Shown here one piece after another: positions 3,082 to 34,372 of a stretch of 64,000 bases of DNA. The stretch spans positions 1-64,000 of IMG/VR virus record IMGVR_UViG_3300017963_000220, one strand, 5' to 3'. The DNA comes from a virus. Each line of letters begins with the position of its first letter. Within the stretch, counting starts at the first letter, position 1. Made by a program: the position numbers and the translations under genes. A model generated the notes under the pieces. It was not told the origin of the DNA. It ran no database searches and saw only the letters and a list, made by a program, of their open reading frames with translations.

Positions 3082-3639
3082 ATGAAGCTGAAGATGGGTA
3101 GTAAGAAGGCAAAGAAGTCCAAGGCTAAAAAGCCTGAGGCTAAGAAGAAGCCAGAGGTTCAGCGGCGGAAGTCGAAGCGAGCAACGGCCCAAGGGCCGCT
3201 CTTTGAGCGGGCTCGAAAGGTTGATGACGCTCTCCAGGCAGCTATTGACTTGGTTACCTCGGTAGCCAATGAGATGGACACTTGGAGCGCCGCTGATGGC
3301 AACGCTTTACGCGAAGTCGCGAATTCTCCGGATTCTTCCATGTTCTGGGATCACACTATGCGTGAACTGGGGCGTGAGGTCTCGGGAACGGCTCTGTTGA
3401 AAGACGCAGCCACACAGGCTATCAAGCTGACGAATCAGTTGGTTTGGTACCAGTGGGCCTTCACCGCCGTGGCAGCGTATGACGCGGCGAAAGCGGCTCA
3501 GGCGGCGAAAGCGGCTCAGAAGCCCAAGAAGGCTCAGAAGCCCAAGAAGGCAAAGAAAGCCAAGGCCGGAAAGCCCTCCAAGAAAAAGCAACCCAAAAAG
3601 GCATCAAAACTCAACCTGAAGAAGAAAAAGAAAAAGTGA
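3082..3639 (+). CDS. Lys/Ala-rich basic protein with histone-H1-like tails
   Basis: ORF 3046.. trimmed to ATG3082 after AAAGGAG. N-terminus MKLKMGSKKAKKSKAKK. C-terminus is AKAAQ/KPKK repeats ending KKKKKK. Confidence 0.6.
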   Translation: MKLKMGSKKAKKSKAKKPEAKKKPEVQRRKSKRATAQGPLFERARKVDDALQAAIDLVTSVANEMDTWSAADGNALREVANSPDSSMFWDHTMRELGREVSGTALLKDAATQAIKLTNQLVWYQWAFTAVAAYDAAKAAQAAKAAQKPKKAQKPKKAKKAKAGKPSKKKQPKKASKLNLKKKKKK

Positions 3640-3648
3640 GTCCTGACA

Positions 3649-3697
3649 GCGTGTAGGGTGCAAGGCCCAATGGAGAGGTTCGATTCCTCTCCCACGC
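3649..3697 (+). ncRNA. tRNA-like element TLS7
   Basis: GCGTG(3649-53)/CACGC(3693-97). Small GCAA-loop hairpin. 7-bp T-arm GGAGAGG-TTCGATT-CCTCTCC (3672-92). Confidence 0.5.
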
Positions 3698-3742
3698 GCC
3701 GAGCCCCAATGGTGGGGCATTTACAAGTAGTAGGAGGAGAAT

Positions 3743-4207
3743 ATGGCCCGTAGGAAGAAGAACAAGAACTCCAAGAAGCAAGCTCCGCCCCCTCCCCCGC
3801 CTGAAGAGGTAGAGGAGGAAGAAGCAGAGGAAGAGGAGGAAGCTGAAGAGGAGGACGAGGAAGAGGCCGAAGACGAAGACGACGAAGCAGAAGAAGAGGA
3901 GGAAGAGGAGGAAGAAGAGCCTCCGCCCCCTCGGAAGAAGCATCGTGGGAAAGTCTGGATCGATGAGCTTCATCTCATCCACCACGACGGAGCACTCTAT
4001 CTCTCTACCGATCCCCTGGCGTTCATCAAGGAATCGCTGGGCGATGTGGAGCCAGCAGAGCTGAATGATCAGCTCGAGGAGTTCAAGGTCGCGAGGCTCG
4101 TGCAATGGGACGAGCTAGAGATCGAGGACGGGGACGAGCTGGAATTCGCAGATATCACTGATGTCTGTGATATCCAGTTCTCCGACTGGGATCTCTCCTG
4201 GAAGTAA
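3743..4207 (+). CDS. polyacidic protein (~55-residue Glu/Asp tract)
   Basis: AGGAGGAG upstream. N-terminus MARRKKNKNSKK, then a PPPPPP-EEVEEEE...EEEE-PPPP tract. Confidence 0.6.
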   Translation: MARRKKNKNSKKQAPPPPPPEEVEEEEAEEEEEAEEEDEEEAEDEDDEAEEEEEEEEEEPPPPRKKHRGKVWIDELHLIHHDGALYLSTDPLAFIKESLGDVEPAELNDQLEEFKVARLVQWDELEIEDGDELEFADITDVCDIQFSDWDLSWK

Positions 4208-4226
4208 GCACCTTATTCCCCCCACA

Positions 4227-4268
4227 GGGGGTGGGGTGATCGAAGTCAGATCACCCCACCCCCATTTT
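4227..4268 (+). terminator. rho-independent terminator built on a GATC-N7-GATC hairpin
   Basis: 15-bp stem GGGGGTGGGGTGATC / GATCACCCCACCCCC, 7-nt loop, then ATTTT. Confidence 0.7.
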
Positions 4269-4317
4269 AGCAGTGTTGGGTATTCAGGCCCATAGAGGTT
4301 CGATTCCTCTAAACGCT
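4269..4317 (+). ncRNA. tRNA-like element TLS8
   Basis: T-arm TAGAGG-TTCGATT-CCTCTA (4293-4311). Imperfect closing stem AGC..GTT/AACGCT. Follows the terminator at 4227-4268. Confidence 0.4.
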
Positions 4318-4332
4318 AGAAAGGAGGACAGC

Positions 4333-4731: not shown

Positions 4732-4738
4732 CGTAATA

Positions 4739-4830: not shown

Positions 4831-4844
4831 GAAAGGAGGGTGTG

Positions 4845-5327: not shown

Positions 5328-5333
5328 GTGAAC

Positions 5334-12928: not shown

Positions 12929-15490
12929 TTGCCTGGAGGGTCACAAGATGGGGATATTAGAAACGTGCGTATAAGGTTCAAATCGAAATGTCGTAAGTGT
13001 CCGCTCCACATAGGCGCGGTAACAAAGTGCATTGGTGGTGAGGGTGTAAGTGACCTACGTGGTGAGGGCCTCTTACTCGTTGGCGAGGCTCCAGGTGAGG
13101 TTGAGGACTACAAGGGGAGACCCTTTGTAGGACCGACAGGAGCAGAGCTTCGTAAGATGGTGAACAGGGTGGTAGATGATCGTATTCCGATCAGATACAC
13201 CAACGCTGTACGCTGTTATCCGGGCAACAATGATGTGAGCCTCGGCGTAGGTCCATGTCGTGAATACCTGTTAGAGGAGATCGCCCAGGTCAATCCGGGG
13301 CGTATCATAGCCTTGGGTAGGCACGCTGTTCAGTCATTGACAGGCTATCGTCTCCCTATCAGTGAGGTTGTAGAGGGTTGGACAAAGAGCACACAGTTTG
13401 GTGTGAAAGTACCGACTCAGTTCGCCTATCATCCGGCGGCTCCACTACACAACAAGTCACTACGGAAGTTCTGGCTTGAGACAACAAAGCGCATGATCCA
13501 GAAGCCACCGCCAGATACCTGGCGGGCGCTCGAGGACGTCAAGATCATCAAGGTTCAGACGGTCAAGAAGGCTCTGGCAGTCTTGGCCGAGGCTATGGAA
13601 CAGGATTATGTAGCTTACGATACAGAGTACAACGACAAGACGAATCGACTCTTGTGTGCATCGTTCTGTTGGGACGTAAACAAGGCTTATGTCTTCAACG
13701 ATATTGTGATGGGCCATTCGTCGATAATAGCAGCCATAGAGCGGCTATTTCAGACGGTCAAGATGGTGGCTCACAACTGGAAGTTTGACGCTTGGGTATC
13801 TGTCAAGGCTCTGGGCATAGATCCAGAGGTCATTCTCCACCCTGGTAGGTGGTGGATTGACACCTCGACGCTGAGAAAGCTCTACCATCCAGAACAGGAC
13901 AGTAACTTGGAGATAGCTGAGTGGCAGGTCGGTATGGGTGGTGGTAAAGAGGAGCTGTTCGAGCTACTCGGGCGAAGTCATAAGGGGCCTTCCTATGAGA
14001 AGGCTTACAATGACTATCCAGACGTAGTGATGCGCTATTGTGGGAACGACGGGATAGGCTGTTATAGGCTTCTGGTTCGGTACTCACAGGGGCTCAAGAG
14101 AGAGGGACTGGCACCATTGTGGAATGATATCTTTGGGCCTCTTGGAGGTCTCCTGTTTCACATGGAATACGTCGGTCTTCAGGTGGACACAGAGGCAATG
14201 GACGCCTTGGACGCTAGGTTACGCGGTTCACTCGAGCGGGAGTTGATCGCTATAAGATCATCCAAAGTAGTCAAGCGTGTAGCAAAGAATTGGGACTTTG
14301 ACGCGACGGCTGACGATTTCAATCCGAAGTCAGCCCACCACATGAGAGAGCTACTCTTCATGAATGAGGAGGGGCTCCGACTAGCACCACGAGGAACAAC
14401 ACCAGGCGGTTTACCGTCAGCGAACAAACACGTAGTAGCAGCCTATAAGAACGACAATCCTGTGATGGGTCACATCTCGGAGTTCAACAGGCTCAAACAC
14501 AAGCACAGTACATATGTCGAGGGCTGGCGTAAGCGCCTCAGCCAGGAGGACAGGATTCACTGTTCCATTCGACAGGACGCCGCGAGGACACAGCGCGTAC
14601 AGGCAAGAGATCCTAACCTCATGACGATCCCTAACAGGGGTTGGGAGGAGGATTTGGCCATACGACGTATGTGTATAGCACATGATCCTGACGATGAGTT
14701 ACTACTCGAGGTGGACTTCTCTCAAGCTGAACTGAGAGAGGCCGCAGACCTGTCCAACGACCCAGCGATGATGGAAGTCTTTCTGAACAGGCTAGACATC
14801 CATAGGAAGACCGCCTCGGAGATTATGGGCGTATCCATGGATGAGGTTGACAAGCTTCAGCGTACCAAGGCGAAGCCTATCAACTTCGGCACGATATTCC
14901 TTCAGTCTTGGAAGGGTCTACAGGAGAACGCCGAGAAGGAATATGGAGTTCATCTCACTGATGATGAGGCAAAGATGTGGCGTAAGGGTTTCTTCAAAAC
15001 CTATCGCGGCTATCAGGTCTGGACCTTCGGTGAGCTGGCTCGAGCGCGTAAGCGTGGATGTGCGTACATCTACCGTAACGGAAAACCATTCGCCCGACGC
15101 TGGCTGTTCAACCTAGGAGAACAGTGGGATAAGGGCAAGCGTGGTCACGCGGAGCGCCAGGTGGTCAACACTCCCATTCAGGGTGGGGCCTCGCTCAAGC
15201 TACTCCACGCTGGCGTGATTCTGAGACGGATGCTTTACAAAGGTGACCTCCCTGGTGTCACTCGAATCGTCTTACCTGTTCACGACTCACTCATCTTTAC
15301 GGTCAGGCGCAAGATGGTCAAGAAAGCCTTCAGGAAGATTGGTAAGGTGATGATCAGTGAACCCACCATCCGGGTACCTATTGAGGTGGAGGGCAAAGCT
15401 GGTCCGAATCTGGCTGACATGAAGCTTGTAGGTGTGATGTCCGCGCTCGACAAGAACAAGCCTAAGAAGGTGAGGATAGCAGTTGTATGA
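12929..15490 (+). CDS. DNA polymerase I family: family-4 UDG-like domain, 3'-5' exonuclease, PolA
   Basis: UDG4 motif GEAPGEVEDYKGRPFVGPTG. Exo motifs YDTEY, NWKFD, YCGNDG. Pol motif A DFSQAELR, B KPINFG, C PVHDS. Start uncertain (TTG12929 or GTG12968). Confidence 0.9.
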   Translation: MPGGSQDGDIRNVRIRFKSKCRKCPLHIGAVTKCIGGEGVSDLRGEGLLLVGEAPGEVEDYKGRPFVGPTGAELRKMVNRVVDDRIPIRYTNAVRCYPGNNDVSLGVGPCREYLLEEIAQVNPGRIIALGRHAVQSLTGYRLPISEVVEGWTKSTQFGVKVPTQFAYHPAAPLHNKSLRKFWLETTKRMIQKPPPDTWRALEDVKIIKVQTVKKALAVLAEAMEQDYVAYDTEYNDKTNRLLCASFCWDVNKAYVFNDIVMGHSSIIAAIERLFQTVKMVAHNWKFDAWVSVKALGIDPEVILHPGRWWIDTSTLRKLYHPEQDSNLEIAEWQVGMGGGKEELFELLGRSHKGPSYEKAYNDYPDVVMRYCGNDGIGCYRLLVRYSQGLKREGLAPLWNDIFGPLGGLLFHMEYVGLQVDTEAMDALDARLRGSLERELIAIRSSKVVKRVAKNWDFDATADDFNPKSAHHMRELLFMNEEGLRLAPRGTTPGGLPSANKHVVAAYKNDNPVMGHISEFNRLKHKHSTYVEGWRKRLSQEDRIHCSIRQDAARTQRVQARDPNLMTIPNRGWEEDLAIRRMCIAHDPDDELLLEVDFSQAELREAADLSNDPAMMEVFLNRLDIHRKTASEIMGVSMDEVDKLQRTKAKPINFGTIFLQSWKGLQENAEKEYGVHLTDDEAKMWRKGFFKTYRGYQVWTFGELARARKRGCAYIYRNGKPFARRWLFNLGEQWDKGKRGHAERQVVNTPIQGGASLKLLHAGVILRRMLYKGDLPGVTRIVLPVHDSLIFTVRRKMVKKAFRKIGKVMISEPTIRVPIEVEGKAGPNLADMKLVGVMSALDKNKPKKVRIAVV

Positions 15491-15831
15491 AACTCAAGGT
15501 CAAGAAACCGAAGAAGGTGAAGCTGAAGCTCACTTCTGAGAAGTCCAAGGGCAAATACTATATGTTGTGGTGGGATCATTACAAGGTATCGCCTAGCTTC
15601 TATCTCATCCCAGCGAAGCGTGTGAGCCCTCGACTCTTGAAGGTACTTCAGCGAGCACACAATAACTTCATTGATACTGAGCGTGGTTACATACCAGATG
15701 ATACTCATCAGATCAGGATGGGGTTGAGCAGATGGTTGGTTCCATATCGAGTGATGGAACATCAGCTCATGTTCGCTCCAGAACTGAAGGTAAACCTACT
15801 TGGTGTCTTTTACACGGGGCAATTAGGATGA
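15487..15831 (+). CDS. hypothetical protein with MKLKVKK leader
   Basis: ATGA overlap with the polA stop. N-terminus MKLKVKKPKKVKLKL. Confidence 0.5.
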   Translation: MKLKVKKPKKVKLKLTSEKSKGKYYMLWWDHYKVSPSFYLIPAKRVSPRLLKVLQRAHNNFIDTERGYIPDDTHQIRMGLSRWLVPYRVMEHQLMFAPELKVNLLGVFYTGQLG

Positions 15832-16031
15832 GATTAGTACAGAAACATTATCCTGGCTATGAGCCAGCTAACGCGGAACACGTCGAGCGTATGGAGAAGT
15901 TCATGAGTGGGGCAGAAACTAAGGAGGAACTCGCCACAGCTTCGGTCCTATATATCTTTGACATGACCTACGCTCGTCAGGACATCGCAACGGTGGTAAG
16001 CGCAATTGAGCGGGAGCGTGGGTGGCGGTGA
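15828..16031 (+). CDS. hypothetical protein
   Basis: ORF 15732.. trimmed to ATG15828, which forms an ATGA overlap. Confidence 0.4.
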   Translation: MRLVQKHYPGYEPANAEHVERMEKFMSGAETKEELATASVLYIFDMTYARQDIATVVSAIERERGWR

Positions 16032-16624
16032 AACTCAAGGTCAAGAAGAAGCGAAAGCCCAAGCCAAAGAAATCCTTCTGGGAGCAACTTCAGGATTTTC
16101 CTTCTGAGGAAGCTACACAGGACGCGCTCAGAGCGATTCCGGATGACATGGCTGAGGCTCTTCAGCTTGAGCCAGCATTATTTCTTGTAGCCACGACGCG
16201 TCTAGCTGGTCTCATGAGCCACTGGTCTACTCGAATGGCCTACGCCAAGGGTAGATTCTCAGCAGCGAAACACGCTCGAGAGATTGGGCTCGAGGCGATG
16301 AAGTCTGACAACCGTCAGATACTCAAGCGCCTGTATGAGAAAGTTACAGAGCCTATGATAGGCGAGAGGGCAAAAGCCAGTGAGGAGTACGCCAGGCTGT
16401 GTCTAGCCGAGGTTGAGGCTGAGACTGACTACATACGCATCAAGGGTTTGGTGGATACGATAGCCACCAAGCGGGAGTCTCTCCGGATCATTTCCTTTTA
16501 TCTCAAGCCTGAGATGGATATAGCATCCGGTTCATATACCGTACCTGATCTGAATCAGATTACCCAGCCATCTGTCCTACAGTCCCTTTTGGAGCAGAAC
16601 CAGGAAAAAATGAAGAAAAAATGA
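16028..16624 (+). CDS. hypothetical protein with KLKVKKKRK leader
   Basis: GTGA overlap with the upstream stop. N-terminus VKLKVKKKRKPKPKK. Confidence 0.5.
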   Translation: MKLKVKKKRKPKPKKSFWEQLQDFPSEEATQDALRAIPDDMAEALQLEPALFLVATTRLAGLMSHWSTRMAYAKGRFSAAKHAREIGLEAMKSDNRQILKRLYEKVTEPMIGERAKASEEYARLCLAEVEAETDYIRIKGLVDTIATKRESLRIISFYLKPEMDIASGSYTVPDLNQITQPSVLQSLLEQNQEKMKKK

Positions 16625-16680: not shown

Positions 16681-17556
16681 GTGAAACTAACCGTAGGCAA
16701 GAAGAAAAAGAAACCACTCAAGAAAAAGTCTAAGCTCCTAGGGGAGCGGGAGAGTAAGCGAGTCAAGAAACGAAAGAAAAAGAAGGCAGACGCCAACGCT
16801 TTCGTTCAGCCCACGGCGAAGGCCGCCAAGAAACGCCTTGAAGAGGAAGGCGCAGGTGAGCTGTGGAAACCTCGTGATGGTCTCAATACCATCGTGATGT
16901 TACCATCGACGAGAGCCATGGGCATCTCAGGGGACTTTCCCTGGATCGAGACACGTTCACACTTCATTGGTGGGGAACAAGCCATGACCGCCCTCGGGAT
17001 TGAGCGTCCAGACGACTTCCCGATGGCTGTGGGCTGTGCAAAACACCATGAGAAGCGTACATGTGGCTGGTGTGAGTTTCAACAGAAGCTCCGACAATCC
17101 AGGCACGCTCGAGACAAGAAATTGTCTCGAGCCCTCTTCAATACGCTTTCCTGTTTCGCCAACATCGTCGATATGCGGCAACCGAAGGTGGTACGCCAAT
17201 GGCGTTTCGGACGTCGTGTGGAGACCGAGCTTCTGGTGGCTCTGGAGTCGGGCATCAACTTCGTGGACCCAGACGATCTGATGAAGATCAACATTCGGAG
17301 GATCAAAACTGGTAAGCAAGACTGGAATGTGGAATACAAAGTCAATGTACTCCAACACAAGACAGTCGGGCCTATCAAGACAGTCTGGAAGAAAAACATG
17401 GAGGATCTCTCCAAGTTTATCAATCCTGTTCAGTCTCCCAGTGAATACCAGGAGACCATGGATTTACTCCTAGCCGCCGCTGAGGCTGAGGGAGAGGATG
17501 TGGACTTGGAGGCAGACTACGACGATGACGACGACGATGATGACGTCGACTTCTAG
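16681..17556 (+). CDS. hypothetical protein, basic head and poly-Asp tail
   Basis: ORF 16663.. trimmed to GTG16681 after TAAGGAGGG. Ends DYDDDDDDDDVDF. Confidence 0.55.
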   Translation: MKLTVGKKKKKPLKKKSKLLGERESKRVKKRKKKKADANAFVQPTAKAAKKRLEEEGAGELWKPRDGLNTIVMLPSTRAMGISGDFPWIETRSHFIGGEQAMTALGIERPDDFPMAVGCAKHHEKRTCGWCEFQQKLRQSRHARDKKLSRALFNTLSCFANIVDMRQPKVVRQWRFGRRVETELLVALESGINFVDPDDLMKINIRRIKTGKQDWNVEYKVNVLQHKTVGPIKTVWKKNMEDLSKFINPVQSPSEYQETMDLLLAAAEAEGEDVDLEADYDDDDDDDDVDF

Positions 17557-17569
17557 GAGGACAGCTCCG

Positions 17570-17857
17570 TTGAACCGGAAGTTTTTGGTCTGGAAATATC
17601 TCGTGAGCTGTGGCTTCAGTCACAGGAAAGCAAGAGATATTTGGAACAAGGAAATCTACCCCAAGATAACCAATGACTGGAACGCGCAAGATATCATCCG
17701 AGCCATCAAAGATGGCTGGGACCAACAGGAACTTGAAGACATGAAAGGGTCGCAAGATGAAACTCAAAGGACTGAAGAAAGCGAAAAAGGGTGGGAAGAG
17801 CAAGAAGAAGACCGCCAAGATCGAGTCGATTCCGCCCGAGAACATCCTCATCTGTGA
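17570..17857 (+). CDS. hypothetical protein
   Basis: TTG17570 lies 9 nt after TAGGAGG (17554-60). The acidic tail overlaps the next gene by 101 nt. Confidence 0.4.
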   Translation: MNRKFLVWKYLVSCGFSHRKARDIWNKEIYPKITNDWNAQDIIRAIKDGWDQQELEDMKGSQDETQRTEESEKGWEEQEEDRQDRVDSAREHPHL

Positions 17858-19070
17858 GGCTACCGGCAACAAGGTACGCTTCAACAAAGAGGACGCTCTC
17901 AAGGCGTGTATCGCTGGTGAGCGTCGAGTGTTTTCCTCACGTGAGGTGGCGGCGGGTCACAAGGAGATCGAGGACGCAAAGGGTGTTCGTCACGTTCACC
18001 GAAATTGTATCTTCGCTGATCCGAACAAGAACGTTCGACGCTTCTCCATCAAGGCGGCTGAGTTCCTGGACCTGATGGAATCCATCAAGGAAGAGGGCAT
18101 TCTTCAGCCTCTTCTCGTCCATCGGAACGCGGATCACCTTCCGGCCTTGTACGAGCTTCGAGCTGGCTTCCGTCGGTTCGAGGTGGCCAAGAAGATCGAC
18201 CTGGAGCACATTCCTATCGTGATTCTGGACGATGAGGTCAACCCCAAGGTCGCTGGTATCCTCGAGAATCTCCGTGAGGATATGAAGCCCATCGAGATGG
18301 CTACGGCAATCAAGGCTATCATGGATGAGGGTATCATCGACAAGAAGACCGGGAAGAAGATGAAGTTGTCTCAGCGCAAGGTCGCTAAGATGATCGGTGT
18401 CTCCCAGTCTCGTGTCTCTGATCTCCTCGGCTTGGTGGGTGACCTTCATACGAAGGTATCCCGCGCCGTCACCGATGGTGAGCTTCCCGTGAGCAAGGCC
18501 GCGCTGTTGAAACAGCTTCCGCCGAAGGCCCAGGTCAAGGGCCTCAAACTCGCCTCGGATCTCGACGTGAAGGATCTCCGCAAGTACGTTCAGGACACTC
18601 GTGAGTCGCTCGGACTTCCGCCGCCCGCTCATCAGGCGAAGCCCGCGAAGACCCAGATGAAGGGCAGGAAGTTCAAGGTTCGTCCGGTGGGTGAGCTGTT
18701 CGACGCCTGTCTCGCCGCTGAGAAAGCCTACTTCAAGGGTAAGGGCAAGAAGTCGGTCACAAAGAAGACCGTCGTCGCTGTCCTTCAGTGGCTCGGTGGG
18801 ATGATCGAGAAGCCGACCGACGATCCCGTGGACCCCGTGGAGTTTCAGCGGAAGGTTGAGGAGGAGGCCGAGCGGAAGAAGCAGGAGCGTCTCGAGAACC
18901 TGAAGAAGGGCCGCGAGGCTCGGAAGGCCAAGATCGCGAAGAAGAAGAAGGGTGGCGGAAAGAAAGCCGCCAAGGGCAAGAAGAAGCCACCCGCCAAAGG
19001 GAAGGCGAAAACCAACAAGGCCAAGCTCCCCAAGGTGAAGACCAAGAAGAAGGCCAAGGGTAAGAAATAG
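17757..19070 (+). CDS. ParB-like protein (ParB N-domain plus HTH) with Lys-rich termini
   Basis: EGILQPLLV and LRAGFRRFEVAK (ParB/Srx box). HTH LSQRKVAKMIGVSQSRVSDL. N-terminus MKLKGLKKAKK. Confidence 0.7.
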   Translation: MKLKGLKKAKKGGKSKKKTAKIESIPPENILICEATGNKVRFNKEDALKACIAGERRVFSSREVAAGHKEIEDAKGVRHVHRNCIFADPNKNVRRFSIKAAEFLDLMESIKEEGILQPLLVHRNADHLPALYELRAGFRRFEVAKKIDLEHIPIVILDDEVNPKVAGILENLREDMKPIEMATAIKAIMDEGIIDKKTGKKMKLSQRKVAKMIGVSQSRVSDLLGLVGDLHTKVSRAVTDGELPVSKAALLKQLPPKAQVKGLKLASDLDVKDLRKYVQDTRESLGLPPPAHQAKPAKTQMKGRKFKVRPVGELFDACLAAEKAYFKGKGKKSVTKKTVVAVLQWLGGMIEKPTDDPVDPVEFQRKVEEEAERKKQERLENLKKGREARKAKIAKKKKGGGKKAAKGKKKPPAKGKAKTNKAKLPKVKTKKKAKGKK

Positions 19071-19073: not shown

Positions 19074-19370
19074 ATGCCCGTCAGGGTACCTAAGTCGGAC
19101 CTTTGGCGGGCTATCAGGGCGATGTGTTTTGAGTGTAGAGGAGGCATGACTCGACTCGATTGTAGGGGTCGAGTCTGTCCCTTCTACTTTGTATTGAAGG
19201 CGGCGAAGCTTGATCCGATACTCTGGTGGAAACATCCCTACACATTATGGGAAGCCATGTCGCAGGCAGCACATCGTCAAATGATGGAAGAAGCTACTCA
19301 AAAGAAAAAGGTCCGAATCAAGGTCAAGAAACGACGTAGGAAAAAACGCAAAGTGAAGCTGGTGATCTGA
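19074..19370 (+). CDS. hypothetical Cys-rich protein with basic tail
   Basis: CFECRGG...CRGRVCPFY. Ends KKKVRIKVKKRRRKKRKVKLVI. Confidence 0.5.
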   Translation: MPVRVPKSDLWRAIRAMCFECRGGMTRLDCRGRVCPFYFVLKAAKLDPILWWKHPYTLWEAMSQAAHRQMMEEATQKKKVRIKVKKRRRKKRKVKLVI

Positions 19371-19649: not shown

Positions 19650-20771
19650 ATGGCTAAGGCACAACTGAGTAACACGGATAAGGTCCGTGAGATTCTCAAC
19701 AAAAGCTACGGAGCTGATGTCACCTATCTCATGGCTGATGTCAGCGACGCAGCTGATACCGCTATAGACACAGGTCTGACAGCCTTCGACTATGGGCTCC
19801 TCGGGATCGGTGGGATTCCCCGAGGGCACTTCTTTGAGCTATCAGGGGAGGAGAAGGCTGGAAAGACTACGATGGTTCTACACATGATAGCCGCTTGTCA
19901 GCGTGAGGGCATGGTTCCTCTCGTCATCGATTCAAAGGGCGCTGTCACGACTGATGTGGCTCGCGCCCAGCGGATAGGTGTGGACGCTGACAAGTGTGTT
20001 CTGGTTCCTGTAGACTCCTCGGATGAGGTACTCCAGCGGACGCGGGAGGCTCTAGGCAAATTACAGAAGGAAGACATCGAGGTGGCTTTCTTCTGGGACG
20101 ACATGGGGCTGACTCCTAGTGACGCTGAGATGGCACCTAAGAAGGATAAGAAGACCAAGAAAGAGATCGTCAAGGTGGGCTCGAAGGCTTCCTCTATATG
20201 GAGGTTTTGTCGGTCACTAGCTGGGGCATGTTACAAAGTAGGAGCCCCGATGGTAGTCGTGAATCAGCTCACCGCGAAGATAACGACAGACTGGACAGCA
20301 CAGTACGCTGAGAAGGAACAGACCGCTGGGGGTGGGGGTTTGAAGTACACAGCCCGTATCCGAGCGGAGCTTAGAAAAGGCAAGAAGATCAAGAAGGGTG
20401 GGAACAAGGTGGCTCAGGTCGTCTACGCTCAGACGATAGCGAACGCTTTCTTTCCACCGTTCAAGCGAGTGCAACTCTATCTCGACTTTCGATCTGGGTA
20501 CAATTCTACACTCTCTACACTCCTCAACGCCGAAAAGGCAGGAGTGGTGACAAAGAATCGAGGACTCTTCAAGATGAAGGGAGCCCCACGGGGAACCAAA
20601 GGGGCAAAGCCTGAGGACCTCGATGAAGAGACGTTGTGGGCCATAGAGGCTAGGCTCTGGCCTTGGATGGAAGGTGATTATGAAGCTGAAGACGAAGGCA
20701 GCGAAGAAGACCTCGACGAAGACGAAGAGGCCGAAGAAGACTTCGCCACAGCCTATATCGAAGACGAATAA
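19650..20771 (+). CDS. RecA/RadA-family recombinase
   Basis: ORF 19491.. trimmed to ATG19650. Walker A GEEKAGKTT. Acidic tail. Confidence 0.7.
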   Translation: MAKAQLSNTDKVREILNKSYGADVTYLMADVSDAADTAIDTGLTAFDYGLLGIGGIPRGHFFELSGEEKAGKTTMVLHMIAACQREGMVPLVIDSKGAVTTDVARAQRIGVDADKCVLVPVDSSDEVLQRTREALGKLQKEDIEVAFFWDDMGLTPSDAEMAPKKDKKTKKEIVKVGSKASSIWRFCRSLAGACYKVGAPMVVVNQLTAKITTDWTAQYAEKEQTAGGGGLKYTARIRAELRKGKKIKKGGNKVAQVVYAQTIANAFFPPFKRVQLYLDFRSGYNSTLSTLLNAEKAGVVTKNRGLFKMKGAPRGTKGAKPEDLDEETLWAIEARLWPWMEGDYEAEDEGSEEDLDEDEEAEEDFATAYIEDE

Positions 20772-25693: not shown

Positions 25694-26685
25694 CGCGAGT
25701 GTTCCTGGCTGATGAAGCCTCTCCAGTGGTGACAAGGTACAAGAACATAGGAGACATAGACTTCTCTGTGAGACTTCTCTTGACATGCACAGGTTCGGCG
25801 CGGTCTCGAGCGCGTATTATGGCTCGAGCCTGTGACGCTCTACAGCCTCAGAGTCTCTTTGTGGATTCTGGCGCTTTTGTGTTACGCAGCGCTTTCTACA
25901 AACATGGTAAGCTCCCGTCTGTTTCAGAGGCCGAGGAGATCATCAGGAATCATCTGGGCTCTTGTGTTTGGCTGGTAGAGCATAAATATCCTCTCGAAGC
26001 CGTAGCCGAGTTGGACTTGCCTGATATCTATGGCGAGGACATCAATGAGCGCTGGCGAGAGAAATATTTCTACCCATTCCAGGAGCAGACTGGTGTACCT
26101 GTTGTTCTAGCGGTACACGGGAGTGTCAAATGGGAGGCTGTCATAGAGAATCCCCGGCTCAAGTATCTGGGGATGTCGGCGGCGATGAACAAGAAAACTA
26201 TTGCTGCTAGCTATGGCTCCTATGAGGGTTACGTCAAGTTCATGAGAAACATCGCTGAAATTTGCTACCTGGCTGGCGTGAAGTTTCACGGCTACGCTGT
26301 GACGCGCTCGAGTCTCTTGAGGAGGGTACCATACTACTCCTGTGATAGTGTTACCTGGCAACAGGCTTTACACTTCGGCGGAGCTATGGCGTTCGACGAG
26401 TCATCAGGGAACCTGGTACGTGTGGACGCTGGGAAGTCTCTCGTCAAGAACAAGGGAGCAAAGAAGCTAGCTATGAATATCGTCAAGATTCAGAGTCATG
26501 GGTCACGGCTCAGACCTCTGGATGTCATTGGACGAGAGAAGATAAAAGGTCGCCCTCGGGCTGACCATCATGCAATATTCCATGATCAAGCCCGAGTCTT
26601 TTCCCAGATGGAGACCTACTTCACCAAGTTCTGGAAGCTCAAGGGCTTTGACTGGGAACAGCAACTCGAGGACCACGGACGATGA
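25690..26685 (+). CDS. dpdA: DpdA-like DNA-guanine transglycosylase (TGT superfamily)
   Basis: LFVDSGAF resembles the TGT DSGGF catalytic-Asp motif. Located between queD and queE. Size ~330 aa. Confidence 0.6.
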   Translation: MTRVFLADEASPVVTRYKNIGDIDFSVRLLLTCTGSARSRARIMARACDALQPQSLFVDSGAFVLRSAFYKHGKLPSVSEAEEIIRNHLGSCVWLVEHKYPLEAVAELDLPDIYGEDINERWREKYFYPFQEQTGVPVVLAVHGSVKWEAVIENPRLKYLGMSAAMNKKTIAASYGSYEGYVKFMRNIAEICYLAGVKFHGYAVTRSSLLRRVPYYSCDSVTWQQALHFGGAMAFDESSGNLVRVDAGKSLVKNKGAKKLAMNIVKIQSHGSRLRPLDVIGREKIKGRPRADHHAIFHDQARVFSQMETYFTKFWKLKGFDWEQQLEDHGR

Positions 26686-27503
26686 AGGTACAGAAGAAGA
26701 AAAAGACGAAAAAGAAAAAGCTGAAATTGAAGCTGCCCGAGCGGGTCAGACTAAAAGCTGGCCAGTTTGTGGAGCTACCAGGTGGTCTCATCATAGGCGA
26801 GGTTCCGCTCGAGAAGATTGAGCATCGAAAGGTTCGCTTTCGACGTATGGATTCATTACAGCTTGGCGCTCTCAAGGAATCCATTGAGCGTCTGGGTGTG
26901 AAGGACCCTGCCTTGGTGGTTCCCAACAAGAAGGGTGGCTTTGACCTTGTGGATGGTCACCATCGCGAGGACGAGATCTCTGCTCAAGGTGGAGAGTCTA
27001 TTCCTGTGGTGGTACTCACCGACAAGGAAGGTGAGCTAGTGACAGCCAAAGAGGCTGACCTGGCTATGCACCGCTTCAACATTTCAGCTCATACAGATGG
27101 AGAGAACTTTCTTCAGGTACTCCATGAGATGCACGGATCAGGTATCTCCATCGAAGACATCGCGAAGGCCACAGCCAAAGACGTCGCCTCCATTTCTGAG
27201 ATGGTCGAAGCTTTTACAGCAGACCTCGAAGAAGACGATGACGATGAGGACGACACCAGAGGCGGGGCCGGTTCAGGTGGGAGTCGTTATGACTCGGCTA
27301 CTGCTTTCGGCGCGGCTGAGAATGACGAACCAACACATGAATCCTCACGTGGGATTCCCTTGATTTTGCAGCTACCAGGGACAGATGATGTCCGAGAGCT
27401 GTTGAGTAGGGCTGTAGAACTGTTCAAATCTTCCTCTACCTCTGAGGCGGTAGTGGAAGCCTTGCGTGTAGTCGTTGGAAGAAACGACGAAGGAGAAGAG
27501 TAA
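26682..27503 (+). CDS. ParB N-terminal-domain protein (DpdB-like position)
   Basis: GVKDPALVV...FDLVDGHHR (ParB/Srx domain). ATGA-coupled to the dpdA-like gene. N-terminus MKVQKKKKTKKKKLKLKL. Confidence 0.6.
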   Translation: MKVQKKKKTKKKKLKLKLPERVRLKAGQFVELPGGLIIGEVPLEKIEHRKVRFRRMDSLQLGALKESIERLGVKDPALVVPNKKGGFDLVDGHHREDEISAQGGESIPVVVLTDKEGELVTAKEADLAMHRFNISAHTDGENFLQVLHEMHGSGISIEDIAKATAKDVASISEMVEAFTADLEEDDDDEDDTRGGAGSGGSRYDSATAFGAAENDEPTHESSRGIPLILQLPGTDDVRELLSRAVELFKSSSTSEAVVEALRVVVGRNDEGEE

Positions 27504-27887: not shown

Positions 27888-27901
27888 TCGGAATCCGATC
27901 A
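27885..27901. repeat. GATC-N7-GATC inverted repeat (compensated variant)
   Basis: TGATCGGAATCCGATCA. The inner arms change from CTGA/TCAG to CGGA/TCCG but remain complementary. Confidence 0.9.
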
Positions 27902-27958
27902 ACCAACGCCATGGCTGTGGGGCTCTTCTAGCCCCCAGCCTGGGCCGCACTTTTTATA

Positions 27959-28657: not shown

Positions 28658-28665
28658 GAGGCGAG

Positions 28666-29571: not shown

Positions 29572-29572
29572 C

Positions 29573-30373
29573 ATGGAAGACGTTCACGAGGAAGCCGATG
29601 ACCGAGGCATACCTATCAAGGTAGGTGTGGAGAATGTTCGTCATACTGTCTTGGTTCTTGGGCGTGATGGGGATCTCCGTGAATGCTTTGCGAGTGTTGA
29701 TGTCCAGGTGGAACTTGAACACGACGTTCGAGGTATTCACATGAGTAGAATCCTGCGTTGGTTGACGGATTGGAATCCTCTACCAGTGTATGGTGGGCTG
29801 ACTTTGGACGCCGCGACAAAACTAAGACAGGTAATGGGTGGAGGCGCAGTGGACATTGTGTCTCGTTTTCCTTTACCAGTTGTCAGGCGAACACCATCTG
29901 AACATCTCAGAACATCTCAATTCTATGATGCTGTAGTTCAACAGTCCTGGTCTGGGGCTCCATCGGAGCTGACCTATCGTTCATCTCTGACGGTTCCTGT
30001 GTTTACTGTCTGCCCTTGTAGCTTGTCGATGTGTGAGGGGATAGCCGCTCATACTCAGCGCTGTTACATAACTGCTACTGTAACACAGAACTGGGAACAC
30101 CTATGGGAGCGCTACATCCCACTCGAGGACGTTTACGATTGTCTCGCGAAGTGTGGGTCTGCCCCTGTCTTCTCGACACTGAAACGTCCAGATGAGATGA
30201 GCGTGGTCCAAGGTGGCTTCGCCAATCCAAAGTTTGTTGAAGACGTGGTACGTGATGCCGTGATCGAACTCAGATCACGGCTGAAGTTTTCGCGTTTAGA
30301 GGTACGAGCCCACAGTCAGGAAAGTATTCATCCCCACAATGTTGTGGCGTGCGCTACAGAGGTTTCAGAATGA
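29573..30373 (+). CDS. folE2: GTP cyclohydrolase I type 2
   Basis: RGIHMSRI (FolE2 GTHMSRF-like) and VCPCS motifs. Confidence 0.7.
   Translation: MEDVHEEADDRGIPIKVGVENVRHTVLVLGRDGDLRECFASVDVQVELEHDVRGIHMSRILRWLTDWNPLPVYGGLTLDAATKLRQVMGGGAVDIVSRFPLPVVRRTPSEHLRTSQFYDAVVQQSWSGAPSELTYRSSLTVPVFTVCPCSLSMCEGIAAHTQRCYITATVTQNWEHLWERYIPLEDVYDCLAKCGSAPVFSTLKRPDEMSVVQGGFANPKFVEDVVRDAVIELRSRLKFSRLEVRAHSQESIHPHNVVACATEVSE
30259..30279. repeat. GATC-N7-GATC inverted repeat inside folE2
   Basis: CGTGATC-gaactca-GATCACG. It encodes AVIELRSR. Confidence 0.9.
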
Positions 30374-31173
30374 CCAAGAAGTTGAAACTGAAACTGAAGG
30401 TGAAGAAGAAGCGGAAGTCAAAGAAGGCAAAGGACAAAGAGGTACTCGAGAAGCTACCTAAGGTCAAGGTCACATTCGAGTACAATCCTAAGTCACGAAG
30501 ACGGATACCTCTTGACGTGGTGGAACGCATGTTTGAGCTGTACTGTCAGGAGTATCCTGTTCGCGCCATCGCTGAGGAGACAGGTGCAGCAGTCCCGACC
30601 GTTACGAAGTATATCAATGAGGGAGATCCTGAGCGCCAGGTGGAACCGTTACGGGACCGCCGGGCTCGAGTCCTACAGGCGCTCTTCGCTCAGAATGAAG
30701 AGGCGTTGAATAAGCGCATGTCCCATCATACCAAACTGAACTCCGCTGGTTTTGGTCAAGCGGCGGCGCGGATTATCAGACGATACCAAGCTGCCGAAGC
30801 TCTCGATGACGCTACGCTCCTCTCCGACAAAGAGCGGGCGTTGTATGAGCGCATAGCTCTCGAGCCTGACCTGGCTGACGTATCGACGTTCCATCGGAAT
30901 TCTATGGATCTCATGCGCCTATCCTTGGGACTGAGAGACACAGCTCCAGTGAATATCAACGTGAGTCAGAATCAAGAGCAAACTCAAGACCAGGGCGCTG
31001 ACATTTCTGTGAAAGACCAGGGTGACATCGAGATAGTCTACGAACACATCCAAGCATTGTCTCGTGCTGGCGAGAAGGACGAGAAGATAGTAGCGAACAC
31101 CGTCAAGAGAGCCAGCTTGCGCACCGAAGGTACACTTGAGAACGAGGACCCACATACACCTACACAGAAATAA
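30370..31173 (+). CDS. putative HTH protein with KLKLKLKVKKKRK leader
   Basis: ORF 30349.. trimmed to the ATGA overlap at 30370. HTH-like VRAIAEETGAAVPTVTKYI. Confidence 0.5.
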   Translation: MTKKLKLKLKVKKKRKSKKAKDKEVLEKLPKVKVTFEYNPKSRRRIPLDVVERMFELYCQEYPVRAIAEETGAAVPTVTKYINEGDPERQVEPLRDRRARVLQALFAQNEEALNKRMSHHTKLNSAGFGQAAARIIRRYQAAEALDDATLLSDKERALYERIALEPDLADVSTFHRNSMDLMRLSLGLRDTAPVNINVSQNQEQTQDQGADISVKDQGDIEIVYEHIQALSRAGEKDEKIVANTVKRASLRTEGTLENEDPHTPTQK

Positions 31174-31223: not shown

Positions 31224-31598
31224 GTGAAACTCAAAATCAAGTACAAGAAGAAGAAGAAAAGCCAGACGGCAGGCTACTTCGACGTGATCCATCCTCCAAA
31301 GGAGGAAAATATTACTACTCCTGAAGCCAAAAAGGCTGTAAAGGAGGCATGGGCTAGGATTGAGGAGAAGAGGAAGGCTAAAGCTGACCATGGTGTCTAC
31401 ACTATCGTGGAAGCTCCGTGTCCGTTGTGTGGTATTCTTCACAGACTCAACGCACTCATCAAACATCATGGTGAGGCCCACACAATCTGTATGGATTGTG
31501 CGTTGAGTAAAGACCTTCGTGACAAGCTGAAAAAGAAGGGTTGGTTACCTAGTCAAAGCAAAAGGAAGGTGAAGCGTGTCAAAATCAAATCTGTATAG
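31224..31598 (+). CDS. hypothetical Cys-rich protein with KLKIKYKKKKK leader
   Basis: GTG31224 after GGGAGGG. Contains CPLCG...CMDC. Confidence 0.5.
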   Translation: MKLKIKYKKKKKSQTAGYFDVIHPPKEENITTPEAKKAVKEAWARIEEKRKAKADHGVYTIVEAPCPLCGILHRLNALIKHHGEAHTICMDCALSKDLRDKLKKKGWLPSQSKRKVKRVKIKSV

Positions 31599-31893: not shown

Positions 31894-31914
31894 CCTGGTA
31901 GAAAGGGAGGTTCT

Positions 31915-32232
31915 ATGGAACTCTTACTCGAAAGCCTCAAAACGGCAATCGAAAATGGAGGACCAGCCCTCATAGTAGCGGCTGTCCTCATGATCTTGGT
32001 GACTCTGTTCACGAAGATGTTCGGCAAGTATGTTCCGCCTTATTGGCGGCCACTCGCCACGTCTGTTGTGGGTGTAGTCACTGTAACAGCGACAGCGCTG
32101 ATGGCAGGCGTGGATTGGTACTGGGGTATCGCCTCGGGAATCCTTGTCGGAACATCGGCTGGCGGTCAATGGTCCCTTTGGGGCAAATACATCGCCAAAG
32201 CGCTGAAGCTCAAAGACCATGGGCCGCTTTGA
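31915..32232 (+). CDS. membrane protein (holin-like size and topology)
   Basis: AAAGGGAGG upstream. Hydrophobic segments ALIVAAVLMILVTLF, VVGVVTVTATALMAG and GIASGILVG. Confidence 0.5.
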   Translation: MELLLESLKTAIENGGPALIVAAVLMILVTLFTKMFGKYVPPYWRPLATSVVGVVTVTATALMAGVDWYWGIASGILVGTSAGGQWSLWGKYIAKALKLKDHGPL

Positions 32233-32485
32233 CCCGCCTCGGCGGGATATACTAGGTGCATTGTTCGCTGTCTTCGGTATTGTGACCACCATCTTTGTGG
32301 TGTTGGTCATGATACACTTTGGCGAGCTGATGGGATGCCATGGTAGATCCAACAAAGATCACCCCAGAATTGATCCGCGAACCACAGATGATTGCATGGG
32401 ATCGGTGGCTGAGAGACATTCACGACGACATTTCAACGTTTTCGGACAACGCATCTCGCCTCGAGCGAGCGCGGGAGATTCGTGA
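32219..32485 (+). CDS. possible small membrane protein
   Basis: N-terminal TM-like ILGALFAVFGIVTTIFVVLVMIHF. The 3' half overlaps ORF 32340..32801, so its extent is doubtful. Confidence 0.3.
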   Translation: MGRFDPPRRDILGALFAVFGIVTTIFVVLVMIHFGELMGCHGRSNKDHPRIDPRTTDDCMGSVAERHSRRHFNVFGQRISPRASAGDS

Positions 32486-32801
32486 CGAGTTGTCTGAGAG
32501 TTACTCATCTCTATTCATCGATGTAGATATCTATCAGCTAGGCAAACGCCTGGTCGATAGCGTCATTCGTGGTTGGTTCAATCAACCCGTCGGAGTTCTC
32601 TGTGCTGGCATCACAGACTGTGACGCTCAGTGTGAGAACGCTCAGAAATGTGCTGTCTACGAGATTTGGGCCAGGATGTACCCTGGCTCGAATCTCAAGG
32701 ACAGTAGAATACGCATGTGTTCATATCTCATGATCTTCGTTCCGGAGTTCAGTGAGAGAACAGCTAAACGCTTAGGCATACACCAAGAGGAGGCTTTCTG
32801 A
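32340..32801 (+). CDS. hypothetical protein
   Basis: ORF-track entry; weak RBS; start uncertain. Confidence 0.45.
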   Translation: MVDPTKITPELIREPQMIAWDRWLRDIHDDISTFSDNASRLERAREIRDELSESYSSLFIDVDIYQLGKRLVDSVIRGWFNQPVGVLCAGITDCDAQCENAQKCAVYEIWARMYPGSNLKDSRIRMCSYLMIFVPEFSERTAKRLGIHQEEAF

Positions 32802-33535
32802 TGAGGCTTACTCGTGACAACACTTTTCGATTCATGGACAAAGCTGCACTCAAGGAAGTCGATGAAAACTACATAAAGGTTCTCATTGATCGTGGTCAGA
32901 TCAACTGTACGGATTGTGTTGGTCTGACCAAGTTCGTTGAGGACTGGCTATTTCTCCCACAAAATCTCAAGTTTCTGGTTGACGATTCATTTTTGCTCAT
33001 TACAATTCTTACGTTTCTTTTGGATCGTGGTCGACGAATAAATGTAGGTAACACACCTAGACTCAAGCCCCTACCTATACAAGAGGCACCATTGGGTCTC
33101 ACTCAAGTACCACGTCTGGTAGCTGAACAATTTAGACACGAAACTACCGCTGATGTGCAGATGTTACCTTTGTTTCCTGATGAGGACAGGCCGCGCCATG
33201 AGGTAGCTGTCATGTTTTCAGAGTCAGAGTATGATCCCAGCGTATATGGGCCTAGTCCTCCTGACGTGTCCTACAGGCGAGCCGTGACAAGCTATTTCAG
33301 GGTGGGTACAAGCCCTCATGGCTATTTGTTACAAGGACAAATAGCTTTGCACCGGGATATGGTCTTCGATATGGCTCGAGAGCTTTATGATGTCGTATAC
33401 CGAGAGTGGTTCACGAGGCTTGGTGACCTTCCACGTCCTATGGCTACTGCTCGTGTGTATGTGTGGGATTGGATCGAGATGGATCAAGATATAACCAGAG
33501 GCTCTAACATACTTACCATAGCAGTGGCGATGTAG
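32801..33535 (+). CDS. hypothetical protein
   Basis: TGATG junction with the upstream gene. Confidence 0.55.
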   Translation: MRLTRDNTFRFMDKAALKEVDENYIKVLIDRGQINCTDCVGLTKFVEDWLFLPQNLKFLVDDSFLLITILTFLLDRGRRINVGNTPRLKPLPIQEAPLGLTQVPRLVAEQFRHETTADVQMLPLFPDEDRPRHEVAVMFSESEYDPSVYGPSPPDVSYRRAVTSYFRVGTSPHGYLLQGQIALHRDMVFDMARELYDVVYREWFTRLGDLPRPMATARVYVWDWIEMDQDITRGSNILTIAVAM

Positions 33536-33543
33536 GGGGAGAC

Positions 33544-33786
33544 ATGGAAAACAAACCAGAAAACTTCATCTCAGAGTACATCAGCGAAGAGCAGCTCGAG
33601 CTGTTCCCAGAAGAAAAACCACCGCTTTGTACCGAGTGTGGCGACCCAGCGAAGATTCTTTACTGGTTCGATCCGCAAGTTGTGGACGAAACGGACGGAG
33701 AATCGACGTGGGAGTATCTCGGTAGGGCTTATTACTGTGAGGACTGTTCACGAGGTTTGAACATCCTTCCGGAGGCAACGTTGTGA
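33544..33786 (+). CDS. hypothetical zinc-ribbon protein
   Basis: CTECGD...CEDCS. GGGGGAG upstream. Confidence 0.5.
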   Translation: MENKPENFISEYISEEQLELFPEEKPPLCTECGDPAKILYWFDPQVVDETDGESTWEYLGRAYYCEDCSRGLNILPEATL

Positions 33787-33799
33787 TCGGAGTCAGATC

Positions 33800-34372
33800 A
33801 TGAAACTCAAGATTAGAAAGCGGAGGGGTGACGCTCACATAACGCAAGGTACACCTAAGGTTCCTCATTTCAAAACTATCGTCGCTGACCCACCCTGGAT
33901 GGAACGTGGCGGCGGAAAGATTCGTCGAGGAGCCGACAAACACTATCCACTACTCACAACACCGCAAATCATCCAGACAATGGCGACATCTGGCTACTGG
34001 AGACCACACCCCGATGGCTGTCATATGTATCTCTGGGTGACCAACAACTTTCTAAAAGATGGCATCTTTGTCATGGAAGCTCTTGGTTTCCGGTACATCA
34101 CGAATCGCGTCTGGGTGAAAGACCGCTTCGGGATAGGCTACTACTTCAGAGGGCAACATGAGATCGTCCTCTTTGGAACCTCGCTCTCAGGAAAAGCCAT
34201 CCCACCCAAGGTGAAAAACATGCCATCAATCTTCTACGCCGACAGAACGAAACACTCTCAGAAACCATCTCAGTTCTACAATGACGTAGAACTAATTTCT
34301 CAAGGACCATACCTCGAGATGTTTGCTCGCTGTCCTCGTGAAGGCTGGACCACATGGGGTAACGAGGTGTGA
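33800..34372 (+). CDS. MT-A70-family N6-adenine DNA methyltransferase
   Basis: Catalytic DPPW (IVADPPWMERGG). N-terminus MKLKIRKRR. No SD; the ATG abuts a GATC hairpin. Confidence 0.8.
   Translation: MKLKIRKRRGDAHITQGTPKVPHFKTIVADPPWMERGGGKIRRGADKHYPLLTTPQIIQTMATSGYWRPHPDGCHMYLWVTNNFLKDGIFVMEALGFRYITNRVWVKDRFGIGYYFRGQHEIVLFGTSLSGKAIPPKVKNMPSIFYADRTKHSQKPSQFYNDVELISQGPYLEMFARCPREGWTTWGNEV

Follow-up and report, generated by a model that had tools for sequence, protein, structure and literature searches.

A lysine-rich terminal tag on about eleven otherwise unrelated proteins of an uncultivated tailed phage

The DNA analysed here is a stretch of 64,000 nucleotides (positions 1 to 64,000 of virus record IMGVR_UViG_3300017963_000220, hereafter the window), which is part of a 95.7-kb metagenomic contig. 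Its source genome is an uncultivated tailed phage. About eleven otherwise unrelated proteins encoded in the window carry the same N-terminal tag, in which Met-Lys-hydrophobic-Lys-hydrophobic is followed by a run of lysines, and this motif is maintained as a peptide in related phages.

The tag and its carriers

The following starts carry the tag, the coordinates being those of the segment that encodes it.

3082..3147, + strand: MKLKMGSKKAKKSKAKKPEAKK, on a very basic protein of 185 amino acids (family J), with an AAGGAG Shine-Dalgarno sequence upstream
12965..12991, + strand: VRIRFKSKC, a weak tag on the UDG-PolA fusion polymerase; its closest relative (L131) has MKIRFKSKC with an ATG start
15487..15531, + strand: MKLKVKKPKKVKLKL, on a protein of 114 amino acids (family A) whose start overlaps the polA stop codon (ATGA)
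16028..16072, + strand: VKLKVKKKRKPKPKK, on a protein of 198 amino acids (family B)
16681..16785, + strand: VKLTVGKKKKKPLKKKSK...KRVKKRKKKK, on an SSB-like protein (family C) with a GTG start
17757..17816, + strand: MKLKGLKKAKKGGKSKKKTA, on a ParB-like protein with ParB_N and HTH_ParB domains (family D)
20680..20739, + strand: MKLKTKAAKKTSTKTKRPKK, on an Mre11/SbcD-like nuclease (family E) encoded within the 3' end of the recA-like gene
26682..26735, + strand: MKVQKKKKTKKKKLKLKL, on a DpdB-like ParB_N protein (family F) adjoining the DpdA-like transglycosylase
30370..30426, + strand: MTKKLKLKLKVKKKRKSKK, on an HTH-like protein of 267 amino acids (family G); an alternative TTG start at 30382 gives MKLKLKVKKKRK
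31224..31259, + strand: VKLKIKYKKKKK, on a protein of 124 amino acids (family H) with a GTG start
33800..33826, + strand: MKLKIRKRR, on an MT-A70 DNA methyltransferase (family I) whose Pfam domain runs from residue 24

An earlier sequence-only reading of this DNA had quoted ten of these N-termini, and every one of them was found as read and at its coordinates. Most begin with MKLK as had been described, the deviating genes being 26682 (MKVQ) and 30370 (MTKK); read from the TTG codon at 30382, the latter begins MKLKLKV. Looser basic heads at 3743, 10573 and 12173, as well as Lys/Arg-rich C-terminal tails on the proteins at 3082, 17757, 19146, 31224 and 58849, had also been listed and are indeed present. 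The carriers are unrelated, as had been claimed: after removal of the leaders, the protein bodies showed no significant similarity to each other, save for the ParB_N domain common to 17757 and 26682. The SSB-like assignment derives from a match of the window protein to phrog_1867 (E 3e-5) and from phrog_1192, which was matched by four of six family members (best E 8e-12); a PDB profile search with this protein returned spurious matches to designed proteins only. The family J protein gave no Pfam or PHROG match.

The tag occurs far more often than expected. The string RTGAAACTCAAR was found five times against 0.04 expected, in all five cases at a gene start (15487, 16028, 17757, 31224 and 33800), and the looser RTGAARCTNAAR nine times against 0.29 expected. 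Enrichment among gene products was judged on the set of 81 called proteins, seven of which start with MKLK (0.03 expected), while 13 contain at least seven Lys or Arg in residues 2–20 (0.8 expected).

With regard to the gene starts, annotated domains begin past the tag (MT-A70 at residue 24, ParB_N at residues 89 and 40, SbcD at residue 32; Pfam/PHROG). The Mre11 start must be 20680, because the next in-frame start (20830) falls past the DxH metal motif. The GTG start at 16681 is served by an AAGGAGG Shine-Dalgarno sequence and has an ATG at the matching position in orthologues; the GTG starts at 16028 and 31224 likewise align with ATG starts of orthologues. When the tag was removed computationally, the isoelectric point (pI) of several carriers fell from about 9 to 5–6.5, indicating that the tag supplies the positive charge in those carriers. 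Halophily was rejected as the origin of the charged tracts, as Asp+Glu (14.0%) and Lys+Arg (14.2%) are balanced and the median pI is 6.4.

The specificity of the motif was examined by scanning 2.9 million viral contigs for strings coding for MKLK[VI]KKK. At least 120 viral loci were obtained, mostly AT-rich and including internal matches. A second tag-type gene start was seen in the known relative alone and at none of the 119 unrelated loci, and the notion of a motif widespread among viruses was rejected on these grounds. No description of this feature came up in literature searches on N-terminal phage tags that are polybasic or rich in lysine.

Conservation of the peptide and its C-terminal copies

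Syntenic relative contigs were recovered by protein searches with the polymerase, the SSB-like and the DpdA-like proteins. The closest relative (L131/L135) is 82–86% identical. The lineages L001, L007/L136 and L009 show about 53–54% polymerase identity, the SSB-like protein of L006/L132 is about 45% identical to that of the window, and L010/L137, L133 and L134 are more distant. A metagenome scan returned only two short contigs, both of which had already been recovered, and scans seeded with low-complexity patterns of the SSB-like protein gave no useful match.

The leader is kept by nine protein families across the five nearer lineages, where polymerase identity ranges from 45 to 86%. In tagged orthologues, residue 2 is nearly always Lys or Arg and residue 3 Leu, Ile, Phe or Val, the exception being the family G leader of the window if its start is taken as the ATG at 30370 (MTKK); a hydrophobic residue usually occupies position 5. 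In the basic run after this cap, the charge is kept between relatives and the sequence is not. Thus, family A proteins start with MKLKVKKPKK, MKLKIKKAKKK, MKIKVSRRAK, MKILVKKKSK, MRIKVRKVDR or MKFKLRV, family B orthologues with MKFKVKKKRK, MRVKVNKKKHKR, MKIKIARR, MRITIRRK or MRLKRRK, and the SSB-like proteins with MKLTVGKKKKK, MKLLLGKKKEK, MRLTVSTKKEK, MKIAVGEKQK, MKISIGKAKK or MKFKLNSKK. The ParB-like orthologues of family D are tagged with MKLTVGKKGTKNSKK and MKLTVGSHKSAK. The Mre11 proteins begin with MKLKTKAAKK in the window, MKLKAKAMTKK in L135 and M/VKILTK(M/Q)KQKK in relatives, the upstream starts of the last form being absent from the public gene calls of those relatives. Family F orthologues have MKLHKKKSAKKKKLKVKL or (TTG)KLKTTKKNRKRKVRIKVK, with MKKAGKKKKKK in the L137 lineage, family G orthologues MKIKLKPKKKK or MKIKIKPRVKPK, and family H orthologues VKLKVRFKKK or MKISIRKNKRVK. 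The MT-A70 orthologues start with MRVKLRKRYK or MKFKYRKTVKK, and in the closest relative this tag is reduced to MKIPKHFK.

The codons of the relatives' leaders vary between AAA and AAG, between ATA and ATC and between TTC and TTT, and Arg is encoded by CGA, AGA or AGG. Free codon variation together with a conserved motif indicates that selection acts on the peptide, and the proposal of a common peptide tag is borne out in that orthologues keep the motif through conservative changes (K/R; L/I/F/V). The nucleotide-level conservation described by the sequence-only reading holds inside this genome and does not extend beyond it, as one of eight leaders keeps RTGAAACTCAAR in the 82–86% identical relative. 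Within the window, the identical codons RTG-AAA-CTC-AAR occur in five genes and not in six, 16681 reading GTG-AAA-CTA-ACC.

The cap is not present in the three distant lineages (L010/L137, L133 and L134), where some proteins keep plain poly-Lys heads such as the DpdB-like MKKAGKKKKKK given above. As judged by these capless heads, the basic arms seem to predate the stereotyped cap in this phage group, the cap itself apparently having arisen in a single sub-clade. Moreover, residue 3 tends to be the same across the protein families of a genome: Leu predominates in the window, Ile in L006/L007 and Phe in L009. A permutation in which residues were shuffled among genomes inside each family gave p about 0.001 for six genomes, 0.002 for four collapsed lineages and 0.05 for an alternative four. 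We regard this apparent homogenisation as a lead from a small data set with hand-curated starts; gene conversion between leaders and co-evolution with a common reader would both fit.

The element is also found at C-termini. Alternating Lys and hydrophobic residues beside a polybasic run make up a recurring terminal module that is placed at either end of a protein, and the window contains the following C-terminal copies and basic tails.

3580..3636, + strand: basic C-terminal tail KKKQPKKASKLNLKKKKKK of the family J protein
19023..19067, + strand: basic C-terminal tail KLPKVKTKKKAKGKK of the family D ParB-like protein
19302..19367, + strand: double copy of the module, KKKVRIKVKKRRRKKRKVKLVI, at the C-terminus of a small Cys-rich protein encoded 3' of parB
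31557..31595, + strand: copy of the module, SKRKVKRVKIKSV, at the C-terminus of the family H protein

The ParB-like tail is kept in relatives as KLPKPKSKKKK, RLPKPKPKIKSK and KKKVAIKLPKVVL. Orthologues of the Cys-rich protein end with FKVKVKRRKKKIRIKVRR in L007 and VVIKIKHRKRVVIKVKRRKK in L006, and the L010 orthologue lacks the module. Family H proteins of the window and its relatives end with KRKVKRVKIKSV, KKKVKRVKVKLT or KSVTIKIKRK. The presence of the module at conserved C-termini shows that its function is independent of the start codon. Taken together with the codon data, these copies remove a pure mRNA or initiation explanation, and an mRNA-level initiation element, which the sequence-only reading had put forward as an alternative, is not supported as the main cause: AAA-CTC is not conserved even in the closest relative.

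Tethering to polyanions and rival explanations

A module for replication, recombination and nucleotide metabolism is encoded in the window, with an SNF2/DEAD helicase, a DnaB-like helicase, a primase, the UDG-PolA fusion, the SSB-like and ParB-like proteins, a RecA/UvsX-like recombinase, Mre11/SbcD-SbcC, MT-A70 and a ThyX homologue called from a Pfam Thy1 match. The tags are confined to the DNA-metabolism module, structural and metabolic proteins being without them. All carriers with a known function act on DNA (SSB-like, two ParB-type, Mre11/SbcD, MT-A70, HTH-like and, weakly, PolA), and the module's metabolic enzymes (QueD, QueE, FolE2, QueC and a PRA-PH-domain protein) are untagged. For these reasons, binding to nucleic acid or another polyanion is the most economical reading. 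In two-subunit systems a single partner is tagged, namely Mre11 and not SbcC, and DpdB and not DpdA.

In the reading to which we give a probability of roughly 0.5, the tag would consist of a portable basic arm and a short amphipathic cap and would anchor proteins that act on DNA to DNA itself or to other polyanions, perhaps helped by contacts to acidic tails. The cap, Met-[Lys/Arg]-hydrophobic-x-hydrophobic, alternates in the manner of a short amphipathic strand, and the Lys/Arg-rich segment of 8–30 residues that follows is predicted to be disordered from its composition. According to this reading, a sub-clade of uncultivated tailed phage would have placed the module on the N-termini, and sometimes the C-termini, of many DNA-metabolism proteins. 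The basic arm would raise their non-specific affinity for DNA or another polyanion, and one tagged subunit per complex would suffice to hold replication, recombination and modification enzymes on the phage genome while it replicates. In addition, the arm may contact the acidic SSB-like and RecA-like tails as well as polyacidic proteins, and weak self-association or recognition of partners may be contributed by the cap. The position of the cap at codons 2–5 probably also eases early elongation into the poly-lysine.

The acidic proteins of the window that could serve as such partners are listed below.

3743..4207, + strand: polyacidic protein with MARRKKNKNSKK, a poly-Pro stretch and a Glu/Asp tract of ~45 residues
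12173..12862, + strand: polyacidic protein with 97 Asp/Glu among 229 residues and basic termini, a candidate electrostatic partner
17509..17553, + strand: EADYDDDDDDDDVDF, the acidic tip at the C-terminus of the SSB-like protein and a candidate for docking with the basic tags
20703..20768, + strand: acidic C-terminal tail EEDLDEDEEAEEDFATAYIEDE of the RecA/UvsX-like recombinase, overlapping the Mre11 tag in a different frame

The SSB-like proteins of relatives end with DDISF, DDIPF, DDVPF or DKVPF, the classic acidic SSB tip. The 12173 polyacidic family lies between primase and polA in all relatives. Its members consist of two small folded regions split by a Glu/Asp tract (L002 3259-3921, L007 9241-9891, L010 8955-9797). 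In seven genomes, mean tag charge rose with SSB-tail acidity (rho 0.74, p 0.06), a correlation that is no more than suggestive. A strict coupling of the tag to the polyacidic protein was weakened by the finding that this family is even more acidic in the tag-less L010 (140 Asp/Glu among 280 residues). Pairing of the tag with acidic proteins thus appears possible and not obligatory.

It should be underlined that several points weigh against tethering. Plain DNA binding leaves both the stereotyped extreme N-terminus and the homogenisation of residue 3 unexplained. Two helicases, the primase, the RecA-like protein and SbcC are DNA enzymes without a tag, as is a protein with a GIDPG N-terminus which we take to be RuvC-like, a label that no library confirmed. 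Four carriers have no assigned function, and the AlphaFold model of the SSB-like protein, built from an alignment of two sequences, was unusable (predicted local distance difference test score, pLDDT, 39). The tag-less L010/L137 keeps an acidic SSB tail together with the very long polyacidic protein, so that these partners do not require the tag. Finally, neither a close cultured relative nor a host could be identified from searches of phage records, proteins, GTDB genomes and tRNAs: megablast against phage records gave no match to the window, the best protein matches reached just 27% (PolA) and 34% (TerL, SPO1-like), PolA identity to GTDB genomes was at most 32%, and the window holds no tRNA genes.

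The two features that plain DNA binding leaves unexplained speak for a sorting or recognition signal, read by one phage or host receptor (an adaptor, a chaperone, a ClpX-type unfoldase that recognises Met-basic-hydrophobic N-termini, a compartment or condensate scaffold, or the prohead core) that sends its clients to one place or fate. The cap is stereotyped at the extreme terminus over about 11 families, residue 3 is uniform within genomes (p about 0.001–0.002) as expected for signals co-evolving with one reader, and the many tagged families of one lineage beside the tag-less L010, L133 and L134 point to acquisition in that lineage. The capsid targeting sequence of T4 would be a precedent for a common N-terminal targeting peptide (PMC3012670). 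We nevertheless consider such a signal unlikely. No receptor candidate emerged, the gene content around polA being equal in tagged genomes and in the tag-less L010; a likely packaged ADP-ribosyltransferase-domain protein beside the portal has no MKLK cap; C-terminal copies exist; the basic run differs freely in both length and sequence; and the MT-A70 tag is lost in the closest relative. Gene conversion could homogenise the leaders as well, in a test that includes few lineages. A little less probable again is the reading in which the tag would be a linear client-recruitment code for an electrostatic replication condensate, a complex coacervate formed on phage DNA with the polyacidic proteins and the acidic SSB-like and RecA-like tails; every tagged protein would become enriched in it, and residue 3 would co-evolve with a common reader. 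Such a code would amount to a transferable sorting signal for cytoplasmic phage enzymes, of which literature searches found no description.

A role mainly in translation, in which codons 2–5 (AAR, NUN, AAR, NUN) and an unstructured, purine-rich 5' region would boost initiation and early elongation of coupled genes or genes with weak Shine-Dalgarno sites, the lysines being a by-product, seems quite improbable to us. It draws on the five genes with RTG-AAA-CTC-AAR: AAA-CTC in at least five of seven MKLK genes has p of about 6e-5 to 0.01, depending on the assumed bias towards AAA at codon 2. This codon is indeed favoured there, against 28% of Lys codons genome-wide, and Leu is most often encoded by CTC (28%). 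The start regions of leader genes are also predicted to be less structured (-7.3 vs -11.9 kcal/mol, p 0.005), and five of ten leader genes overlap or abut the upstream gene. In E. coli, protein yield is higher when Lys or Asn is followed by Tyr or Ile at codons 3–5, and likewise with KFS or KIH, an effect that comes in part from the amino acids (PMC6920384). This short translational ramp resembles the tag in having Lys and then a hydrophobic residue after the start codon and in combining peptide and nucleotide effects; Lys-hydrophobic pairs (KL, KI, KF, KV, KY) fall at codons 2–3 and 4–5 here, which agrees only in part with the published motif in both register and residues (PMC6920384). However, the ramp concerns codons 3–5 alone, the C-terminal copies lie outside its reach and basic runs of 10–30 residues exceed what any ramp would need. 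Nucleotide identity is not conserved even in the 82–86% identical relative, Lys is replaced by Arg through CGA, AGA or AGG, and the Lys codons within leaders show ordinary usage (64 AAG and 17 AAA; 79% AAG vs 72% genome-wide). Some tagged genes (16681 and 3082) already have strong AAGGAGG sites. A contribution of the cap to early elongation alongside a peptide role is plausible, but such an effect cannot account for the whole tag.

The tags might also be largely non-adaptive low-complexity expansions, with (GAA/AAG)n slippage giving poly-Lys in one frame and poly-Glu in another and being tolerated at termini. Along these lines, the coding strand is strongly enriched in purines, poly-Lys/Arg appears when the polyacidic genes are read in alternative frames, tracts of both charges are abundant, and their length differs between relatives. 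The poly-Lys tag of Mre11 and the poly-Glu/Asp tail of the RecA-like protein are in fact shifted readings of the same purine-rich DNA, the two genes overlapping by 92 nt (20680-20771). We nonetheless hold slippage to be very unlikely as the main cause, as position, family and cap motif are kept across lineages at only 45–55% polymerase identity, the tags are limited to the DNA-metabolism module, the poly-Asp tail of the SSB-like protein uses GAY codons with no GAA/AAG repeat, and none of the 119 unrelated MKLK[VI]KKK loci has a second tag-type start.

Tethering to DNA has parallels in known systems. In phage phi29, the N-terminal domain of the terminal protein has non-specific DNA-binding activity and brings the replication machinery to the nucleoid (PMC4974454). 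As in the window, a basic N-terminal segment is found on a phage replication protein, with KKKRK-like sequences in the absence of a eukaryotic host. Phi29, however, uses a helical domain of ~70 residues on one protein, whereas here a low-complexity capped tag of 9–35 residues is carried by about 11 proteins, and no protein-primed replication genes were recognised in the window. In T4 gp32, residues 1–20 (the B domain) mediate cooperative assembly and the acidic C-terminal A domain recruits partners (PMC11551737). The SSB-like protein of the window is basic at its N-terminus, and its acidic C-terminal tip closes with an aromatic residue. The basic region is restricted to the SSB in T4 and is spread over many enzymes here, and the SSB likeness of our protein comes from PHROG families.

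Lys-rich tails of the E. coli Dps N-terminus, actinobacterial HupB and Deinococcus HU add non-specific DNA affinity, condensation or self-association, and similar short Lys-rich arms are known from eukaryotic DNA-binding proteins. Such tails are family-specific features of single proteins, in contrast to one tag that spans many families and is homogenised within the genome.

The capsid targeting sequence of T4 is a short conserved N-terminal peptide on diverse internal proteins (PMC3012670), and in this it resembles the tag, which is likewise common to otherwise unrelated phage proteins. It is found on anti-restriction proteins of the virion interior, which are loaded into the scaffolding core, while the carriers in the window are replication and recombination enzymes. 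The T4 sequence is moreover not known to be polybasic, and it is removed by the prohead protease. A targeting sequence of the T4 type was rejected because the sequences behind the tags have no common cleavage motif. No confident protease match was found in the window, where only a weak low-complexity match of the polyacidic protein was seen, and the annotation of carriers as SSB, ParB, Mre11 and methyltransferase argues indirectly against virion-internal cargo of this type.

The K-(K/R)-x-(K/R) clusters, such as KKKRK in 16028 and 30370, also resemble a eukaryotic monopartite nuclear localisation signal. Import through importin was rejected for a tailed phage with portal, terminase, GGAGG Shine-Dalgarno sites and ATGA gene overlaps. 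Sec, Tat and lipoprotein signal peptides were rejected as well, two isolated hydrophobic residues followed by poly-Lys leaving no h-region of about seven or more residues.

Genomic setting and implications

The recognisable genes of the window all lie on the + strand, and most are preceded by strong AAGGAGG-type ribosome-binding sites. Purines are strongly enriched on the coding strand over the whole window (GC skew +0.04 to +0.16, AT skew +0.03 to +0.17), and the final 3 kb (about 60.9–64 kb) contain no convincing + strand gene. A large terminase, related to those of SPO1-like phages, and a portal are encoded. The polymerase (12965-15490), a fusion of a family 4 UDG with PolA, is split into two open reading frames in two related lineages (L006 5938-8809, L010 10001-12540). 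The early region of L009 (1004-2017, 4311-5574) contains a Gad1 (anti-Gabija) homologue and HNH/AP2-domain genes.

A 7-deazaguanine DNA-modification set is complete in the window (25331-30373 plus 58104-58781), and given this set the DNA of the phage is probably modified.

25331-25693, + strand: QueD/PTPS
25690-26685, + strand: DpdA-like transglycosylase
26682-27503, + strand: DpdB-like ParB_N protein, the tag carrier of family F
27989-28657, + strand: radical-SAM QueE
29573-30373, + strand: FolE2
58104-58781, + strand: QueC

A protein of 1106 amino acids encoded 3' of the portal gene (54503-57823) has a DRAT-like ADP-ribosyltransferase domain at residues 408–495 and many internal Lys-rich stretches, and it may be a packaged and ejected polyvalent protein. 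The heptamer GGATAGG occurs 16 times in the window against seven expected. Four intergenic copies (9124, 16652, 31195 and 58828) stand in a TTACC...CTAGGATAGGT context ~25–30 nt upstream of gene starts, which makes the element a candidate phage promoter or regulator site.

Basic DNA-tethering tails and nucleoid targeting by sequences like nuclear localisation signals are already known in phages. What is unusual is one stereotyped tag over about eleven families, with signs of concerted evolution. Even on a mundane reading, this is an unusually clear case of a single terminal module placed on many unrelated families in one viral lineage, and the homogenisation of the cap within genomes raises the question of a single tag reader. 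If tethering is correct, this phage lineage would keep its DNA enzymes on its own DNA by means of one portable peptide, without protein-specific interfaces. It would then offer a simple model for replication and recombination factories that have neither a membrane nor a protein shell, a natural system in which to test whether poly-Lys tags and poly-Glu/Asp proteins assemble through their charge, and a transferable tag that could send proteins to DNA or to phage factories in bacteria.

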